Position numbers and translations under genes: made by a program. The notes under the pieces were generated by a model. It was not told where the DNA came from and searched no databases. It worked only from the letters and a program-made list of their open reading frames with translations. Positions 8,895 through 54,023 of a DNA stretch of 54,023 nt are shown here, piece after piece. The first letter of the stretch is position 1, and each line of letters opens with the position of its first letter. The DNA is from a virus (Duplodnaviria; Caudoviricetes): IMG/VR virus record IMGVR_UViG_3300049788_000021, positions 1 through 54,023 of that record. The stretch is one strand, 5' to 3'.

Positions 8895-9302
8895 CTAGCG
8901 CGAGAGGGAACTTGTCCGGACGCGTACCTCCCGGTACTGCGCAATGGTCTTTCGCGCTTCCTGGCACGCCTCGCGGATCATATCGTGGAAATAGCTCCCG
9001 CACCTGCCGCGCTCCCCGCGTGCCTCATACTCGCGGTTCTGCTGGCCACACTCGCGGTGGTCCATGAAATCCTCCAGCGATTTGTAGACGCAGTTGCCCA
9101 AATACGCCTCGCCTACTTTGTCGCCATGGTAATACACGGCAACATGCGCGACGAAGGCAATCAGTTCCCCATCGTCCAAACCCTTGGCCACCTCCCCGCT
9201 GTCGTCCCAGGAAATATCCAGGTCTTCTTCGGGGAAGGCCTGACAGATCACCGAAAAGTTTTTGGTTCTAAACTCGCGCATCAATCCAAGTCTCCGGTAC
9301 AT
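8895..9302 (-). CDS. Hypothetical protein
   Basis: ATG at 9302 downstream of the GGAGTGGAC motif. Confidence 0.75.
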   Translation of the reverse strand: MYRRLGLMREFRTKNFSVICQAFPEEDLDISWDDSGEVAKGLDDGELIAFVAHVAVYYHGDKVGEAYLGNCVYKSLEDFMDHRECGQQNREYEARGERGRCGSYFHDMIREACQEARKTIAQYREVRVRTSSLSR

Positions 9303-9391
9303 GGTTGTCCACTCCATTTACTAAGATTTAACTACGGGAACGAATGCTTCCCTTGCTCCGCGTCTGTCACCCACGGAGGATAGCGAAACAC

Positions 9392-9646
9392 TCACCTGGA
9401 CCTACTGCTGAAGTGCGGGCTGTGCAGCGCTAAGCCCAACACATACTCGACACAGTAGGCCAAGTACATGGGATCATTCTCCTGCCCCAGTGCCTTGTTG
9501 ATGCGTTCGAGGTTGGGTTTGATTATCAAGTCGGCAACACGTTGCGCGTAAGTTTTTCCGTCCGTGGTCCACTCCCCACGCCATATCTGCGCTGCCAGCA
9601 TGATTTCTTCTTCGCTCAAAAAGTCGTGCAAGCGGATGAGCTTCAT
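9392..9646 (-). CDS. Hypothetical protein
   Basis: Coupled to the upstream gene (ATGA). Confidence 0.7.
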   Translation of the reverse strand: MKLIRLHDFLSEEEIMLAAQIWRGEWTTDGKTYAQRVADLIIKPNLERINKALGQENDPMYLAYCVEYVLGLALHSPHFSSRSR

Positions 9647-10083
9647 GCGCGTATCCAGTACTCTACCCCGTCAAAGTCCGCGCTCATATAATCGGCCTTG
9701 AGCGCATCCGCCGCCGCTTCCCAGTCGATATGATCGTTTGGCCAGGAAGCGTTTTTGTCGATTGCGCCAATGTCTTCGGCAAGTTGCTGGGCGTACTCCT
9801 CGAAATAAGAGTCCCGAATGAGGGTTTCCCCGTGGTTCCAATCCGGCGAACCAGAGGCTTCTTCTTCGAGCTTTTCGAGCGCTTTCAGTTCGTTGTACTC
9901 GTCCTCGCCAAAGTCCACGGAAGAGGCAAAGGTCCTGCCGTCCGCAGCGGTGAGCATATCCTGATCGTCCGGATTTTCCGCCGCATCGTCGCGGTAGTCC
10001 TGCAGTTCGCGTATGCGGCGGATCACGTCTCGACTGTCGATTATGTCTTGACCGTTGTGTACTTCGTTTCTTGCTCTAATCAT
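9643..10083 (-). CDS. Highly acidic ArdA-like antirestriction/DNA-mimic candidate
   Basis: Very D/E-rich; C-terminal HIDWEAAADALKADYMSADFDGVEYWIR resembles the ArdA C-terminal motif. Confidence 0.55.
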   Translation of the reverse strand: MIRARNEVHNGQDIIDSRDVIRRIRELQDYRDDAAENPDDQDMLTAADGRTFASSVDFGEDEYNELKALEKLEEEASGSPDWNHGETLIRDSYFEEYAQQLAEDIGAIDKNASWPNDHIDWEAAADALKADYMSADFDGVEYWIRA

Positions 10084-10246
10084 GGTGTGTCCACTCCAGT
10101 TTAGTTTTTAGATTTTTGAGAGGGAGGTTGACGTACTCCCTCTCCGTGCTTGCAGTTGATGAGGCTGCTACGCTGGCCACATGGCGGGAGAAAACTCCCC
10201 GTTGCGGGGAAAGAGGTTTTCGTAACCATGCAGCAAGACCGTTGCC

Positions 10247-10441
10247 TTATTGGTTATCATCCTCCAGGCGTTCCAACCGTTTTTCATGCGCATGCACAAT
10301 CTTGGCCAAGTCGGCAACCAGTTGCGCCAGACTGGCCACCGCATTGGTTAATTGGCGCACCTCTTCAGTTAGCTTGGCTTCGTTTTGCAGCAACATCTCT
10401 AGGCCGCGCTCGAAACGATCCAATCGTTCTGTGTCGCTCAA
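10247..10441 (-). CDS. Small coiled-coil protein
   Basis: GGAGGA SD then TTG; heptad pattern ERLDRFERGLEML...HEKRLERLE. Confidence 0.6.
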   Translation of the reverse strand: MSDTERLDRFERGLEMLLQNEAKLTEEVRQLTNAVASLAQLVADLAKIVHAHEKRLERLEDDNQ

Positions 10442-10662
10442 TCTATCCTCCCTGGTCCTTTGGCGATTTCGGACCACGCTTCGTTGTGGTACTGGAAACA
10501 GGTGCCGCACTTTTTGCAGCCCGCCGTGTACAGTCCTGCTGCGCCACTGACAAAAAGAAATTGACGCCAATTGTGGTTGCCGCAAGGACAGAGTAGTTTG
10601 CCCTCCGCAATCTTGCGGCAGTCGTCGAAAAACTTCTGAGTTTTCTGGTCCATGGTGCTCAC
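10438..10662 (-). CDS. Small zinc-ribbon protein
   Basis: CPCG...CKKCG. Confidence 0.6.
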   Translation of the reverse strand: MSTMDQKTQKFFDDCRKIAEGKLLCPCGNHNWRQFLFVSGAAGLYTAGCKKCGTCFQYHNEAWSEIAKGPGRID

Positions 10663-10904
10663 TCGTTTTCGAGATGCTCCCAGAGCGCTTGCTCGCGCTT
10701 AGTACGCTCGCGCATCTCTTCTGCGGTGTACACTCCGCGTGTGTCGTACCACTCGCGCAGCGCTCCCCGGAAATACTCCACCATATCGGCGTCGATTAGT
10801 TCCTGCGAAGTGTCTTGAAAATGGATGACCACCTTTTCGCTACCACCCCGCAAACCTGCGGCAGGTTCCGCGTGCCATAGCACTTCAAAGATTAGCTTTG
10901 CCAT
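10659..10904 (-). CDS. Hypothetical protein
   Basis: ATG follows the GGAGTGGAC motif. Confidence 0.7.
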   Translation of the reverse strand: MAKLIFEVLWHAEPAAGLRGGSEKVVIHFQDTSQELIDADMVEYFRGALREWYDTRGVYTAEEMRERTKREQALWEHLENE

Positions 10905-11116
10905 TGGTCCACTCCTCGGCTAAAAATTTTTCCTTTCTCAGTATGCCCAACTTAACACGAAATTTTTTTGAAACGCCAGTATCAACATTAGCGTACGTAA
11001 CATATTGAGCGCTGGCCTGTTGCTCCCTGGCATGCTCCCCGGCGAGGTGCTCTTCCCTGGCCAGGGACGGACGCGGGAGAGGGATTGTCTCCCCTCTCGC
11101 GTCTCGCGTTTCCCGT

Positions 11117-11344
11117 TTACTTGTCTATCACCTCCAGAGACGCCGTGGATACCATGCAAATGAACCGTCCGGTGGACGGATCACCCACATAGCATTGACC
11201 CATGGTATTCTCGCGAGGTGCTCCAGGTAGACGGATCACTCGCACGGTTTGTCCCTTTTGCAAGGTATTCCCCTGGCACGGATGGAACACGTCCCAACCT
11301 ACTGGGGAATACTTATACAAACCATTTAGACGCACTTTTCTCAT
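11117..11344 (-). CDS. Hypothetical protein (possibly small beta-barrel)
   Basis: ATG at 11344 follows the CACAAGGGAGAAAA motif. Confidence 0.7.
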   Translation of the reverse strand: MRKVRLNGLYKYSPVGWDVFHPCQGNTLQKGQTVRVIRLPGAPRENTMGQCYVGDPSTGRFICMVSTASLEVIDK

Positions 11345-11454
11345 CGTTTGAGGTTTTCTCCCTTGTGATTTTATTTCGAGGTTACATCTCACCTCTGACG
11401 CGTCCCTCACGGATCACGCGAGGGACGCCTAGGCTGTGAGAGGTTTACCCTCCG

Positions 11455-11787
11455 CTAATCCCACACGGGACGAGCAGCCCTTGCGGTATAGTCGAACTCC
11501 CTGGCCACGTGCACCGTGTAGGTAGTATTGGCTTCGAGGTGTACCGTGCCATGTTCTTCGTGCACGATAGAAACGCCACGTTCCGATACTTTAACGATGG
11601 CATCCCCCCATGACGGACGGAACACCTCCGCGTCGGTTAACACCTCCACACGGTGGTGATGTCCGGTGGCCTCTCCCTCACGGATCACTCCGTCTGCTAC
11701 TTTGGCCCTTTGCAGGTAGTCCGTGTTGGTATCTATGGAATACTGTGGGATAAAAAGTAAATCACCTTGCCTAATTAAATTGGCCAT
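11455..11787 (-). CDS. His-rich RQGD/GExTGH protein (usual partner of DUF6745 proteins)
   Basis: RQGDLLF...EGEATGHHH...HEEH...REFD...PVWD. Confidence 0.7.
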   Translation of the reverse strand: MANLIRQGDLLFIPQYSIDTNTDYLQRAKVADGVIREGEATGHHHRVEVLTDAEVFRPSWGDAIVKVSERGVSIVHEEHGTVHLEANTTYTVHVAREFDYTARAARPVWD

Positions 11788-11883
11788 ACGATTGTCCACT
11801 CCTGATTTAGATTTACCTACTCGACACGTATTAGGTGTCTATTGCGCATCCAATCCGAAACGCACGGGATGCGCGATAGCTGC

Positions 11884-12849
11884 CTAAGTTTCTTGCGTCA
11901 ACTGGCCTAGATAGTCGGTAGTGTTGAACATCCAATCCAGGGCGGCAGACACGCTAGTGATGTTCGGGGGAACCATATTGAGATAAACTGCGCCAGTACT
12001 TGGACACGTCATCTTTAATCCCACTAAGGACTCACCATTCCACCTATCCGCACGGATCACTAAGCGGAGTAGAGCGTAGTCCTTGAGCGTGGCTACCGTT
12101 TCGGGATTGGCGTCTAGAAAAAACCGTTCCATCCCGTAGCACATCATTTTCGCCGTACGTATGGTGGTATTGTTTTCCGCAAGAATGCTTTGCACCGATA
12201 GATCACGGTACTTGTGCTCTTTTCGGATCACCTCGCATCCACACGTGTACTTGCCAATGGCCAAACGCCTAGCACGTCGAAAAGCACGGGAAAGTGTCTC
12301 GCAGTGGCGTCTCTCCCATCTTCCCTTGTTCGCATATTGGCATCCCGTGCGGATCACCTGGATGCCGCGTGATTTTCTCAACCAATAATTAGCGCGATTA
12401 ATCGGGCGCTTCTCCGCGTTCCGTTCTTCGCGTCTCGCGTCTCGATACTCTTGGACGTTTCCCCCAACTATGCTTCCGTCTGGATTAATGGTGGCGTCCG
12501 GATCACAGGTTACCTCCGGACCTTTCGGGTTGCGCCAGGAGCCACAGGAAAGCACGGTCATTCCGTCCGAGTTTCGCCTACTGCTCATAGGTTCCCCATG
12601 CACGGAATAATCGGAGGGTAGGTATTGGTTCATGCGATCATAGGTGGTCCGCGTGTGATAACCTCCGGTATTTACCTCTATGCTACCGTCTGAAAAGAAC
12701 GTGAGAATGTCCGTTTCATGTAGCAATACCGCGTAGGCATCCGGATCACCTGTGCCTTGTGTGCGTCTCTTTAGGTAGGTATTGTTGGCCAATCGTTTCG
12801 ACTGGGAACACCTCCCCACGAGAAGTTTGTTTGCCTCACTGTAGTTCAT
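11884..12849 (-). CDS. Protein with a C-terminal DUF6745-like domain
   Basis: LKMTCPSTGAVYLNMVPP...AALDWMF; N-terminal NTGGYHTRTTYDRMN domain. Confidence 0.65.
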   Translation of the reverse strand: MNYSEANKLLVGRCSQSKRLANNTYLKRRTQGTGDPDAYAVLLHETDILTFFSDGSIEVNTGGYHTRTTYDRMNQYLPSDYSVHGEPMSSRRNSDGMTVLSCGSWRNPKGPEVTCDPDATINPDGSIVGGNVQEYRDARREERNAEKRPINRANYWLRKSRGIQVIRTGCQYANKGRWERRHCETLSRAFRRARRLAIGKYTCGCEVIRKEHKYRDLSVQSILAENNTTIRTAKMMCYGMERFFLDANPETVATLKDYALLRLVIRADRWNGESLVGLKMTCPSTGAVYLNMVPPNITSVSAALDWMFNTTDYLGQLTQET

Positions 12850-12875
12850 CGTTTGTTTTTCTCCCTTGTGTTGGC

Positions 12876-12950
12876 GTCTCTCATCAGTGGCGAGTATCAC
12901 TCACCATACGTCCGGATCACGCGAGAACACCTCTCCGGACGTTTCGAGAC
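12876..12950 (-). ncRNA. Type II hammerhead ribozyme HH1
   Basis: Minus strand: GUCUC-GAAA-CGUCCGGA(loop)UCCGGACG-UA-UGGUGAGU GAU ACUCGCCA-CUGAUGA-GAGAC; complete core, three stems, GUA cleavage triplet. Confidence 0.93.
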
Positions 12951-13186
12951 TAGCGAGTTTCCCAGTACGCCAAATTGGCGAGCACGACGGATACGGTGTC
13001 TCCCTGCAGGGTACGGAGCACTAGCGTCCCGTTCTCGGGAACGAGCACCTCTGTTACGTCTGAAACTACACGGTCATTTTCCGCATTAACGAAATGAAGT
13101 ACGACGCGTACGGTTTTTCCGTCGTACTGCAGGCAATCGTGACACTCGCATTTTCCATACAGTGACTGTTTGTAATTGTGTTCCAT
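12950..13186 (-). CDS. 78-aa hypothetical protein bracketed by the two hammerheads
   Basis: AGGGAG SD; MEHNYKQSLYGKCECHDC...YWETR; the TAG stop overlaps the first base of HH1. Confidence 0.75.
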   Translation of the reverse strand: MEHNYKQSLYGKCECHDCLQYDGKTVRVVLHFVNAENDRVVSDVTEVLVPENGTLVLRTLQGDTVSVVLANLAYWETR

Positions 13187-13205
13187 TTTTTCTCCCTTGT
13201 GTTTT

Positions 13206-13264
13206 CCTCTCATCAGAGCACGTACCACGTGCTTACGTCCGGAGCACCTCCGGACGTTTCGAGG
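13206..13264 (-). ncRNA. Type II hammerhead ribozyme HH2
   Basis: Minus strand: CCUC-GAAA-CGUCCGGAG GUG CUCCGGACG-UA-AGCACGU GGU ACGUGCU-CUGAUGA-GAGG; complete core, GUA triplet. Confidence 0.93.
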
Positions 13265-13265
13265 T

Positions 13266-13538
13266 TTAATCGTACATGCCGCGTACTTCGTTAGCCCATC
13301 CAATTGGATCATTCTCACGCGTGCAACTGTCGCAAACATAATGGTGGCGTCCCTTGTACGCGGAAATAGGTGCGCCGCATTGTGGACAGGTGAACCGTGA
13401 TCCACTACGCGGAGGTGTGGGAACACCGGAGAAACATTCCTTACACTTTCCCTCGTGTTCCCTGGCAAAATGTTTGGTGGTAATCCCCTGGCAAGAGATG
13501 CAATTGGTTTGATATTTCGAGAACTGAGAACGGATCAC
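13266..13538 (-). CDS. Double zinc-finger protein
   Basis: GGAGG SD then GTG; CISC, CKEC, CPQC and CDSC. Confidence 0.65.
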   Translation of the reverse strand: MIRSQFSKYQTNCISCQGITTKHFAREHEGKCKECFSGVPTPPRSGSRFTCPQCGAPISAYKGRHHYVCDSCTRENDPIGWANEVRGMYD

Positions 13539-13630
13539 TCCGCACCTCCGTCCCGATAGTGTTCTTCCCATAGACCAATTACATACGGTAGGTAGAACAA
13601 GAGAAAAACGAAACCAAGTAATTGGATCAC
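13535..13630 (-). CDS. 31-aa membrane peptide (not in the ORF track)
   Basis: VIQLLGFVFLLFYLPYVIGLWEEHYRDGGAE; GTGA overlaps with both neighbouring genes; GGAGG SD. Confidence 0.65.
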   Translation of the reverse strand: MIQLLGFVFLLFYLPYVIGLWEEHYRDGGAE

Positions 13631-13977
13631 TGCGCACCTCCGTCGTTCGAGGTGAGCATGAGCATGCTAGCGAAATAGTTCTCTTTGTCCGGATCACGTC
13701 CCTCTGCGATAGCCTTACACTTGCGCTTAGCTATCTCATACCGTATTGAGGTGTAATTGCAGAGACACTCTCCGGAGTTTAACGCCGTAAGTTTGTAGAG
13801 AAACAAGGTAACGATGGGATGAGTGTTAACGTAGTCCGTCCCGCGTCCGCGTTCCCTGGCATGCTCCCAAACTACAAGCAATACCTGCTCTGCTAGCGTG
13901 TGGATCACTCCGCTAGCATTGCACGCGTTCTGTACGTCTAACGCGAGTTTTGCCGCTAACTGCAAAGTAATTGTCAT
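13627..13977 (-). CDS. Hypothetical protein, first gene of the leftward operon
   Basis: AGGGAG SD; LALDVQNACNASGV...NTHPIVTLF. Confidence 0.75.
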   Translation of the reverse strand: MTITLQLAAKLALDVQNACNASGVIHTLAEQVLLVVWEHARERGRGTDYVNTHPIVTLFLYKLTALNSGECLCNYTSIRYEIAKRKCKAIAEGRDPDKENYFASMLMLTSNDGGAQ

Positions 13978-14071
13978 TCGTTTGTTTTCTCCCTGGTAAA
14001 GTGCGCCTCGCGTCCCGGTCGAGTTATCACCTCAACCCTGAAAATGAGACGCCTAGATATAGCTGTATAGC

Positions 14072-14100
14072 AGTGTAACACAGAACGAAAATATTTTCAA
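14072..14100 (-). promoter_or_regulatory. Sigma70-type promoter of the leftward early operon
   Basis: TTGAAA-17 bp-TACACT with an extended -10 TG and A/T-rich upstream sequence. Confidence 0.7.
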
Positions 14101-14538
14101 CACCTCGGAAAATGACAATACAGCAAAGAGAAAAACAAGAGGAAAAAAAGATAAGATAAGCTTAATATGTATTGCCAGTAAACACGCGAGAACGTTTTAC
14201 GAGGGAAAATGCGTTTCGCGTCCCTGGTATTTGCGTCTCTCACCTCGCGTCCCTGGCATCTCTCGAACGAGCACGGGACGGATCACCTCCGGGCGCATCC
14301 GTGTTGGTATCATTAGTGACTACAGGGACGGACGCCACCGGACGCAAGTGTAACTCGCGAATGTACTTACTGATAACGTTAATCGGTTTGTAAAACCGAC
14401 GTGCTGCCTATACGTACGGGTAATTGTATACGTACTGGTACGGGAACCCCATCCCATCAGAGCAAGGCCCGCCCCGTTTAGATCGGGCCTGGGCCGCTCG
14501 CTATTGCTAGGCCTTCATCCTCACTTCTTCCCTTTTTT

Positions 14539-14572
14539 TGCCCAACTTGTCTTGTAATACCATGCCCAACTT
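14539..14572 (-). promoter_or_regulatory. Two direct copies of the AAGTTGGGCA motif, 24 bp apart
   Basis: TGCCCAACTT at 14539 and 14563; the same core recurs near 3514, 10944, 21051, 26036 and 44162. Confidence 0.55.
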
Positions 14573-14728
14573 GTTAGAGTTTGGTTTTGCTGTTAGGGTA
14601 TTTTGCTTAATACGTCGTCATGGTGAAGTAGTGGAGGGAGGAGGGCTGCAGGGGGTTTTTGCTTTTTTGCTGTTGAAGCATTTTTTCCTTTTTAGTTCTT
14701 CTGCCTTTTTTTTCTCTGGTGAGGTGGT

Positions 14729-15034
14729 TTGGGGGTGGTGAAGATGGGCTGGTGGGCCAGCGAAGCGGCGGATGAGTTTTGGCGCAAGTGGCACAAGCCG
14801 GGGAGTGCTGAGGCGCGGACGGAGGAGATGCGCAGAGCGTTACGCGAGAGTGTGTCGTGTTTAGAGGAGTGTGCCACGTTGTTAGCGGAGATGGTGATGC
14901 GCTTTGGGGATCACGTGATATTGGATGATACGTTGGAGGGGGCCACGGAGTGGAAGTTCAGCGAAGGGGTGAAGATGTATTTTGCGAAGGCCAAGGAGAT
15001 GAGGGAGAAGTGGGAGTTGCCGGAGGATGAATGA
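14729..15034 (+). CDS. Hypothetical protein
   Basis: First ORF of the rightward accessory region. Confidence 0.55.
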   Translation: MGVVKMGWWASEAADEFWRKWHKPGSAEARTEEMRRALRESVSCLEECATLLAEMVMRFGDHVILDDTLEGATEWKFSEGVKMYFAKAKEMREKWELPEDE

Positions 15035-52949: not shown

Positions 52950-54023
52950 CTACACCCCCCTCATGGCTTTGATCTTCTGTTGTTCGCTCTTGCGGCGCGT
53001 AGCAATCTTCACCATAGCCTCGCGCAGGTCGGCGTCGTCGGTAATGTCGTAGCGCCACAGCATGCTGTCGGTTTCGTGTCCGGTGATTTTCATAGCCACT
53101 TTAGTGGGCACCCCGGCGCGGATCAGGTTGCGAGCAGCACTGCGCCGCAGATCGTGGAAGATGCGTCCATGGTATTGGCAAGCCCTGCCACAGTGTCGTT
53201 TCTCCGCACCCTGGTGCCCGCAGACGCGGCAAATCATCTTGCCCAAGCCGATGGCTATACAAGCAGTGTGCCATGCCTTGCGGAACTCGCAGATAGGATC
53301 ACCGTCGCGGTGGAACACCCACTGCGAGAGCACCACACCTTTGTCGGTTTTGATGGAACGTGCCTTCCTGCGGCGTTCCATGATGGCAGCTAATTCCGGG
53401 TGAATGTCAAAAGGGATGTGGTAGGGACGGTCGTTCTTGCTGTTCTTGCTGCGCAGCCGGATGGTGTCCTCTTCCACATCGTTCCAAGTAAGCGTACTGA
53501 TGGCATTCAAGCGCCAGCCGATGATGTAGCCGAAATGCACGAAGTCGCGCAGATCATCATCCGGCAACCACTTCAGCAAGGTATCAATTTCCAGGTCGTT
53601 GAAGAAACCCTCGCGCACCGTCGCAGCTTTCAGGTCAGGCATTACTGGTGCAGGGACTTTGGCAAGCTCGAACGCCTGGATGAGCACCTGTAAGCGATTG
53701 CGGATGGTGCTGTCGGCGTAACCGTCCTGGCGCATATCCTTGCGATAGTCCTTGAGCGTTTGGTCGGTGATGACGTTGGACATTCTGGTGCCAAAGGCTT
53801 CTTTCACCAGGGCGAAGAGGCTCAAGTTTTCCGTGGTGTCGATGCCGCGCTCCTGGTAGTCCTCTTGCAGGTTGTCAAGCAACTGCCCAACGGTTTGCGG
53901 TTCCGCTTGGGGCTGTTCTTTCGGATCGACAATGCCCTTTTCGGCGCGAAGATATTTGGCGTGCTCCCCGGCCAACATTTGCATTGCCGCTTTTTCACTT
54001 TTCTTGGTGCCGTCGTTCTCAAT
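52950..54023 (-). CDS. int: Tyrosine integrase, C-terminal part
   Basis: Catalytic motifs GWR, SKN, FHDLRRS, TGH and RY; adjacent to a tRNA-derived att core. Confidence 0.95.
   Translation of the reverse strand: MENDGTKKSEKAAMQMLAGEHAKYLRAEKGIVDPKEQPQAEPQTVGQLLDNLQEDYQERGIDTTENLSLFALVKEAFGTRMSNVITDQTLKDYRKDMRQDGYADSTIRNRLQVLIQAFELAKVPAPVMPDLKAATVREGFFNDLEIDTLLKWLPDDDLRDFVHFGYIIGWRLNAISTLTWNDVEEDTIRLRSKNSKNDRPYHIPFDIHPELAAIMERRRKARSIKTDKGVVLSQWVFHRDGDPICEFRKAWHTACIAIGLGKMICRVCGHQGAEKRHCGRACQYHGRIFHDLRRSAARNLIRAGVPTKVAMKITGHETDSMLWRYDITDDADLREAMVKIATRRKSEQQKIKAMRGV
53897..54023. repeat. Terminal direct repeat, copy 2 (circular assembly overlap)
   Basis: Identical to 1-127. Confidence 0.95.

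Follow-up and report, generated by a model that had tools for sequence, protein, structure and literature searches.

Hammerhead Ribozymes in Phages and Comparable Systems

Clusters of hammerhead ribozymes flank prophage genes, and cleavage in vitro and in E. coli was reported for several of them (Perreault et al., 2011; PMC3088659). The same study proposed that these elements process transcripts into operon-length or gene-length mRNAs, and described a pseudoknot of at least 4 bp between loop I and the 3′ tail in most type II hammerheads (PMC3088659). Three type II hammerheads located near phage-like genes are also reported to cleave in Desulfovibrio vulgaris. According to a more recent review, the purpose of phage hammerheads is still undefined, and more work is needed (2019; PMC6765202). 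Taken together, the literature supports mRNA processing as a class of explanation, short of proof.

The locus described here resembles these prophage clusters in that a pair of hammerheads on the same strand surrounds a single gene of a temperate phage, and in that the flanked genes vary between genomes (PMC3088659). One of the published clusters is a triple around ardA in Agrobacterium tumefaciens (PMC3088659), and the operon examined here ends with a gene that has a weak anti-restriction match. The differences are that the hammerheads of the present locus belong to a putative divergent subtype and that a long hairpin occupies its third spacer. The arrangement itself was already published (2011; PMC3088659), and the locus alone is an ordinary new example of it.

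Direct pairs of hammerheads are also found in retrozymes and viroid-like circular RNAs (PMC7761336; PMC5680766), with which the locus shares a pair that would release a unit with ligatable ends that might rebuild one hammerhead. However, those elements are described as eukaryotic, with type III or type I hammerheads, and as non-coding, multi-copy, and strongly self-paired, with circles that have been demonstrated, whereas the unit in this phage is type II, coding, single-copy, and known here from DNA sequence alone.

In phage T7, RNase III sites are located between the early genes, and their cutting needs a host protein. RiboJ, in turn, is an engineered synthetic ribozyme insulator. Both are comparable to the present locus with regard to intergenic cuts that leave, or in this phage would leave, hairpin-ended and independently behaving cistrons.

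Phage Record and Operon Organization

The window, i.e., the whole stretch of DNA analyzed, contains 54,023 bases and is a complete virus record with direct terminal repeats. The genes for the large terminase, portal, and major head protein are located on the plus strand, and a tyrosine integrase gene (52950-53984) is located on the minus strand. The phage also encodes a RecE-like exonuclease, RecT, an HTH protein, and a primosomal-type protein, and based on this gene content, including the integrase, we regard it as a temperate tailed phage. No tRNA gene was found in the window. The only sequencing run that holds the record is a soil metagenome (DNA), which is probably its own source; the sequencing-run search found no RNA run with the window sequence.

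A megablast search against phage records identified no near relative among deposited phages, and tblastn against the same records yielded no more than partial matches to distant sequences, namely, to Caulobacter jumbo phages and assorted capsids. The terminase locus search found one 10.7-kb contig that falls short of the hammerhead region. Because the scan of genome contigs gave just three weak C-terminal matches, all in cyanobacterial assemblies, it provides no clue to the host. Locus searches with the single 321-aa and 78-aa proteins described below returned no close relatives of the locus, and a sister genome with or without the 78-aa gene was not found in phage records, in viral contigs, or in these protein and terminase locus searches.

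The hammerhead-bearing operon is on the minus strand at about 14.3 to 9.6 kb; the original prediction treated it as early, which is an inference. In minus-strand order, it contains a Cys-rich gene, the first hammerhead (HH1), a 78-aa ORF (ORF78), the second hammerhead (HH2), a 321-aa gene, a 114-aa gene, a long hairpin, and the next gene. The Cys-rich gene (13266-13697, minus) has a weak match to phrog_5602, and its true start is probably internal. The 321-aa gene (11884-12849, minus) matches phrog_19389 and, weakly, DUF6745; the protein has 23 relatives at 33-51% identity. The 114-aa gene (11455-11799, minus) has a relative in the related phage contig L052, where it precedes the second hammerhead of that contig. 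The spacer after the 114-aa gene is filled by a long imperfect hairpin (11378-11452, minus; fold z-score -4.68). The last larger gene of the operon (9643-10083, minus) matches phrog_25535 (E = 3.5e-33) and, weakly, the anti-restriction family phrog_2059 (E = 5e-06).

ORF78 (12950-13186, minus) is taken from the ORF list and lies between the two hammerheads. Its codon score is +0.02 in frame, compared with -0.37 and -0.40 out of frame, and is similar to those of its neighbors. In the region 13186-13213 (minus), the gene call of the source (87 aa, P0024), which is in frame with ORF78, starts at an AUG within the CUGAUGA core of HH1; the 78-aa start has proper RBS spacing. ORF78 is an orphan: among 5.8 billion protein clusters, it found only itself, and its best score in the ESM Atlas (0.86) was uninformative.

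Two Type II Hammerheads Bracket ORF78

The hammerhead core has the consensus C3 U4 G5 A6 N7 G8 A9, G12 A13 A14, A15.1-U16.1, and H17, which agrees with the consensus of the Rfam type II hammerhead family (RF02276). All of the approximately 13 core positions are intact at two sites on the minus strand of the window, namely, HH1 (13206-13264; stem II of 4 bp, stem III of 10 bp, and stem I of 7 bp) and HH2 (12876-12950; stem II of 5 bp, stem III of 9 bp, and stem I of 8 bp). [quoted passage not shown] The 5′ half of HH1 contains CCUC (5′ strand of stem II), GAAA, the stem III hairpin (CGUCCGGAG, GUG, and CUCCGGACG), and U-A, followed by the predicted cut; after the cut come the stem I hairpin (AGCACGU, GGU, and ACGUGCU), CUGAUGA, and GAGG. 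The corresponding 5′ half of HH2 contains GUCUC, GAAA, the stem III hairpin (CGUCCGGA, a 17-nt loop, and UCCGGACG), and U-A, with the stem I hairpin (UGGUGAGU, GAU, and ACUCGCCA), CUGAUGA, and GAGAC after the cut. Both copies retain C3-A9, G12-A14, the A15.1-U16.1 and G10.1-C11.1 pairs, and the GUA cleavage triplet.

HH1 and HH2 have the same stem III sequence and share an exact 16-mer (shuffles average 0.40 matches at ≤3 mismatches). In contrast, stem I is fully diverged; six of the seven pairs compared differ, and all of these differences are two-sided changes that preserve pairing. Each hammerhead starts 0-2 nt from the stop codon ahead of it (UAA at 13268-13266, the stop of the Cys-rich gene and 2 nt ahead of HH1; UAG at 12952-12950 for HH2) and is followed by the RBS block CACAAGGGAGAAAA. 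This block is located 4 nt past HH1 (13188-13201, minus), ahead of the ORF78 start at 13186, and 5 nt past HH2 (12857-12870, minus), ahead of the start of the 321-aa gene at 12849. A third exact copy is found after the long hairpin (11354-11367, minus). Cuts are predicted between 13234 and 13233 in HH1 and between 12907 and 12906 in HH2, and therefore the released piece (12907-13233) would be 327 nt, which is exactly 109 codons.

The original prediction had placed two complete type II hammerheads at these minus-strand coordinates, and the sequence, the pattern scanner, and the minimum free energy (MFE) folds all agree with it. Its more detailed description, i.e., CUGAUGA and GAAA cores, GUA triplets, and paired stems in both copies, an identical 16-bp block next to differing stem I sequences, and positions between an upstream stop codon and the next RBS, also holds. 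The same is true of the cut coordinates and the 327-nt product as predicted from the anatomy, and of the claim that this piece carries ORF78 with its own RBS.

A scan based on sequence pattern plus pairing across both strands of the 54,023 bases found exactly two sites, HH1 and HH2. In 200 dinucleotide-preserving shuffles, the mean number of sites was 0.005, with one site found in a single shuffle and two sites found in none. In ViennaRNA folds, the three-way hammerhead junction is both the MFE and the centroid structure for each copy, with fold z-scores of -4.70 (HH1) and -4.02 (HH2). When flanks of 50-200 nt were included, 17-22 of the 21-22 hammerhead pairs remained in the MFE structure, and the mean pair probability was 0.77-0.86. 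The observation that two hammerhead motifs bracket one ORF is thus confirmed.

Several other candidate structures were considered and rejected. A scan of the window and 107 related loci for type I and type III hammerhead topologies gave two weak matches only, neither of them credible. Stem III does not qualify as an intrinsic terminator; no U tract follows it, and the terminator scan does not list it. The third spacer (11345-11457) lacks a hammerhead core and contains the long hairpin instead.

A Divergent Subtype in Related Phage Contigs

The original prediction had suggested an Infernal search with the Rfam hammerhead models as a check, and neither motif was detected by it, even at E ≤ 10. 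Rfam gave no match in the whole window at the gathering score, no match in 12700-13450 at E ≤ 10, and no hammerhead in 9000-14800, and RF02276 had no match in the whole genome. We did not count this result against the motifs because the RF02276 model is narrow. In the RF02276 consensus, stem II has 2 bp, stem III has 6 bp, and stem I is long, with a loop that pairs to the 3′ tail, whereas the copies in the window have a stem II of 4-5 bp, a stem III of 9-10 bp, and a loop I of 3 nt. By eye, a pseudoknot of at least 4 bp between loop I and the 3′ tail is absent from HH1 and HH2; the sole possible contact is a 3-bp GUG/CAC pairing that requires opening the top of stem I. For this reason, activity at cellular Mg2+ could be low.

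We built a covariance model (R1) from HH1 and HH2 only, with a hand-assigned structure. The first search with this model used the window and 99 loci that surround relatives of the 321-aa gene, and the full search covered 108 sources (107 fetched loci and the window). R1 retrieved six further hammerheads in three other phage contigs (L052, L070, and L087). The L070 pair independently scores 49.1 and 45.2 bits on RF02276 (gathering score 37), whereas the L052 and L087 hammerheads have no RF02276 score, as is the case for HH1 and HH2. With our own covariance models, the scores were 80.1 and 72.4 bits for HH1, and 108.1 and 74.5 bits for HH2. Another model (R2), based on the full set of eight sequences, gave no additional sites in the 108 sources, except for two matches at E = 0.47 in L106 and L107. 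A search of viral contigs with the exact stem III pattern gave no matches.

In the eight-sequence alignment, which was fitted to the model and thereby favors the structure, 95.6% of the cells pair and 19 of the 21 pairs have two-sided changes. None of 500 shuffles reached the observed values, and partners that were slid out of register pair at 29-45%. HH1 and HH2 share with RF02276 hammerheads the circular permutation, the catalytic core, and the intergenic position in phages, but differ in scoring nil, in the longer stems II and III, in the 3-nt loop I, and in the missing pseudoknot. Judged from these sequence comparisons, the two copies represent a divergent type II subtype, invisible to Rfam, in an uncultured soil phage.

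Some of the related hammerheads have features of their own. The loop I-tail pseudoknot does occur in L052a (UGAC/GUCA) and L087a (UGGA/UCCA). The hammerhead at L052:2895-2965, which keeps a 4-bp pseudoknot of this kind (UGAC/GUCA), is an unusual core variant in which the 15.1-16.1 pair is swapped to U-A (GAAU ... A-A cleavage context). In the second L087 hammerhead (L087:5812-5894), stem II seems to pair only if an extra base is allowed on both sides, after A9 and before G12, and its alignment to the model is out of register; this copy may be variant or impaired.

All four records with hammerheads have exactly two of them, on one strand and 0.33-1.4 kb apart, with three of the records (G001-G003) being only 11-60% complete. 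In all eight cases, the hammerhead starts no more than approximately 5 nt from the stop codon of the upstream gene, and the next gene comes after it. The L070 pair brackets one 234-aa gene, the N-terminal part of which is related to the 321-aa protein of the window. The L052 pair brackets relatives of the 321-aa and 114-aa genes, and the L087 pair brackets one coiled-coil gene. Also, a tandem array of 25 copies of a 24-nt unit (CAGATCGGCGGGCTGTCGCAGGAC-like) was observed at L070:5219-5818; it presumably encodes an octapeptide repeat and is unrelated to the hammerheads.

The distribution of these elements around relatives of the 321-aa gene is patchy. Among the 14 loci with such a relative, L052 alone has a hammerhead directly upstream, in the same place as HH2, and it has no ORF78. 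In 8 of the 14 loci, a 4-nt overlap with the upstream gene leaves no spacer, which makes the hammerhead spacers look like inserted modules. In L053, a spacer of 74 nt that contains a long hairpin precedes the 321-aa relative, and in L052, a hammerhead occupies the place equivalent to the long hairpin of the window (11378-11452). Based on these sequence patterns, hammerheads and long hairpins are apparently interchangeable intergenic modules that were inserted sporadically, and the hairpin at 11378-11452 may be a processing or stabilizing element equivalent to a hammerhead, or an RNase III-type site. No hammerhead is present beside the closest protein relatives of the 321-aa gene (43-51% identity), and therefore the downstream gene does not require one.

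An Operon-Wide Family of Short Repeats

The transcribed (minus) strand of the operon contains 14 copies of GUGAUCCG and two copies of GUGAUCCA at 10019-14286, compared with a single copy on the entire plus strand. Of 500 dinucleotide shuffles of this region, none contained any 8-mer more than five times. The GUGAUCCG copies are found in at least six genes, where they occupy the two frames that avoid stop codons (V-I-R or x-D-P), and also in intergenic hairpins, namely, in the stem III loop of HH2 and in the loop of the long hairpin. GGAGGUG (eight copies) and CCAGGGA (nine copies) are likewise enriched in the operon. We take each of the three motifs to be complementary to some part of the 16S rRNA 3′ tail, which is conserved. 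Predicted pairing sites for this tail (-12 kcal/mol or better) have a density of 6.2 per kb in the sense strand of the operon versus 1.07 per kb in that of the structural genes, which is about six times as high. The conserved final G of GUGAUCCG is not obviously explained by pairing with the 16S tail. Nothing similar to this 8-mer enrichment was found in the related loci; the apparent enrichments in L070 and L052 stem from tandem repeats within coding sequence and are not analogues.

A segment within the 321-aa gene (12496-12529, minus) reads CCCGAAAG followed by GUCCGGAG...GUGAUCCGGAC and repeats the portion of HH2 that comprises GAAA and stem III, with 19 identical bases, in a variable stretch of the protein. 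As a third hammerhead it was rejected, as it has the stem III hairpin and GAAA only, with neither a U-H site nor CUGAUGA. We re-read it as a member of the GUGAUCCG hairpin family. This family may also explain why HH1 and HH2 have identical stem III sequences and divergent stem I sequences.

Probable Processing of the Operon mRNA and Alternative Explanations

The likely function of HH1 and HH2 is that they self-cleave and split the operon mRNA into single-gene units. Each hammerhead would fold during transcription of the operon and cut itself after the GUA triplet, such that the polycistronic RNA would be split with no protein involved. With stem II as the open stem, three consequences of each cut are expected, one for the 5′ product, one for the 3′ product, and one for stem II itself. 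At the 3′ end of the upstream piece, there would be the strong stem III hairpin and a 2′,3′-cyclic phosphate. The downstream piece would carry its 5′-OH right where the stem I hairpin begins; a purine-rich leader and the RBS come next. Stem II, which is weak with its 4-5 bp, would fall apart, being unable to hold the products together. In this manner, ORF78 and the unit of the 321-aa and 114-aa genes would become separate mRNAs with hairpin-capped ends, and the stability and translation of each unit would then be independent of its neighboring cistrons. The motifs, their folds, the covariation, and the recurrence in other phages are observed; cleavage itself is inferred, and the expected effect on stability and translation derives from general knowledge, given that 5′-OH ends and terminal hairpins slow end-dependent bacterial RNases. 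Protein-free processing of the polycistron had been offered in the original prediction as the simpler reading, and it is the best supported one; the same reading has been published for hammerhead pairs that flank prophage genes (PMC3088659; PMC6765202).

Alternatively, the motifs may be intact but kept for a role other than cleavage, as slow or inactive descendants of hammerheads, e.g., as stable hairpins of the operon-wide GUGAUCCG/GGAGGUG family that bind some factor or the ribosome. Such a role would fit the identity of stem III in two copies with completely diverged stem I sequences, the presence of a GUGAUCCG copy in stem III of HH2, and a stem III of HH1 that is one base from GGAGGUGAUCC. 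The third copy of the stem III hairpin at 12496-12521, inside the 321-aa gene and devoid of a hammerhead core, points in the same direction, as does the lack of both the canonical pseudoknot and an Rfam score. However, the approximately 13 core positions are intact twice, and stems I and II were kept by compensatory change, a pattern that is difficult to account for unless the hammerhead fold itself was under selection. We therefore consider a role other than cleavage unlikely.

Another explanation concerns DNA rather than RNA. The nearly identical hammerhead-plus-RBS blocks could be mainly short direct repeats at module boundaries, serving for gene gain and loss by recombination, and ORF78 could have been inserted together with a duplicated hammerhead. 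This would be compatible with RNA cleavage as well. Several of the patterns described above agree with it, namely, the orphan status of ORF78, the single hammerhead directly before the 321-aa relative of L052, where ORF78 is missing, and the lack of any spacer at this position in most relatives of the 321-aa gene. Furthermore, identical flanks (a 16-nt block, a 10-nt block, and the core plus RBS) surround the divergent stem I, and the phage encodes RecE/RecT. Yet the repeats are just 10-17 nt long, the searches found no sister genome showing gain or loss of ORF78, and a DNA-level role leaves the conserved catalytic core unexplained. As an account of the two hammerheads, it appears improbable.

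The original prediction had also proposed a self-excising, retrozyme-like coding circular RNA. The 5′-OH and 2′,3′-cyclic phosphate ends of the 327-nt piece would have to be joined, either by an RtcB-type ligase of the host or by hammerhead chemistry running in reverse, giving a circular ORF78 mRNA with a rebuilt chimeric hammerhead. If true, this would be a nuclease-resistant circular mRNA for an orphan 78-aa protein, and the first protein-coding hammerhead circular RNA from a DNA phage. The hypothesis is chemically coherent. Two hammerheads on the same strand bracket one ORF with its own RBS, paired hammerheads recur in all four records (three of them incomplete, as noted above), and the stem II halves GAGG of HH1 and UCUC of HH2 can form 4 bp with one G-U pair. 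In the 327-nt RNA, the chimeric hammerhead that brings the ends together is only 1.7 kcal/mol less stable than the MFE structure (-103.1 versus -104.8), with a pair probability of about 0.10. However, the halves in L052 (GACU upstream and AUCC downstream) give one pair next to the core and are not complementary, and thus a rebuilt hammerhead is not conserved. No RtcB-family ligase was found in the phage genome, and the search of sequencing runs found no RNA run with the sequence. The in-frame stop of ORF78 means that a circle gives no endless translation, and since ORF78 finds only itself and the DNA searches of viral contigs and phage records gave no match, the cassette lacks a second copy and shows no sign of spreading. 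According to Perreault et al. (2011; PMC3088659), circular or spliced products were looked for in such arrangements and none were detected, and the listings and abstracts of the literature searched contain no report of a phage-encoded hammerhead circular RNA. With the ligase missing, the cassette an orphan in single copy, the L052 halves mismatched, and the published search for circles negative, this part of the original prediction is very improbable.

Implications for Phage Hammerheads

The role of phage hammerheads has been open since 2011. For mRNA processing, which we favor here, this locus provides a compact test case, with two strong and simple hammerheads, a 78-aa ORF, and a 327-nt product that can bring its ends together. 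It is suited to the questions of how cleavage affects the stability and translation of cistrons and whether circles form. Furthermore, a subtype that has a long stem II and lacks the pseudoknot escapes the type II model of Rfam. As this missed subtype recurs in at least three phage contigs, the current counts of phage hammerheads are probably too low.
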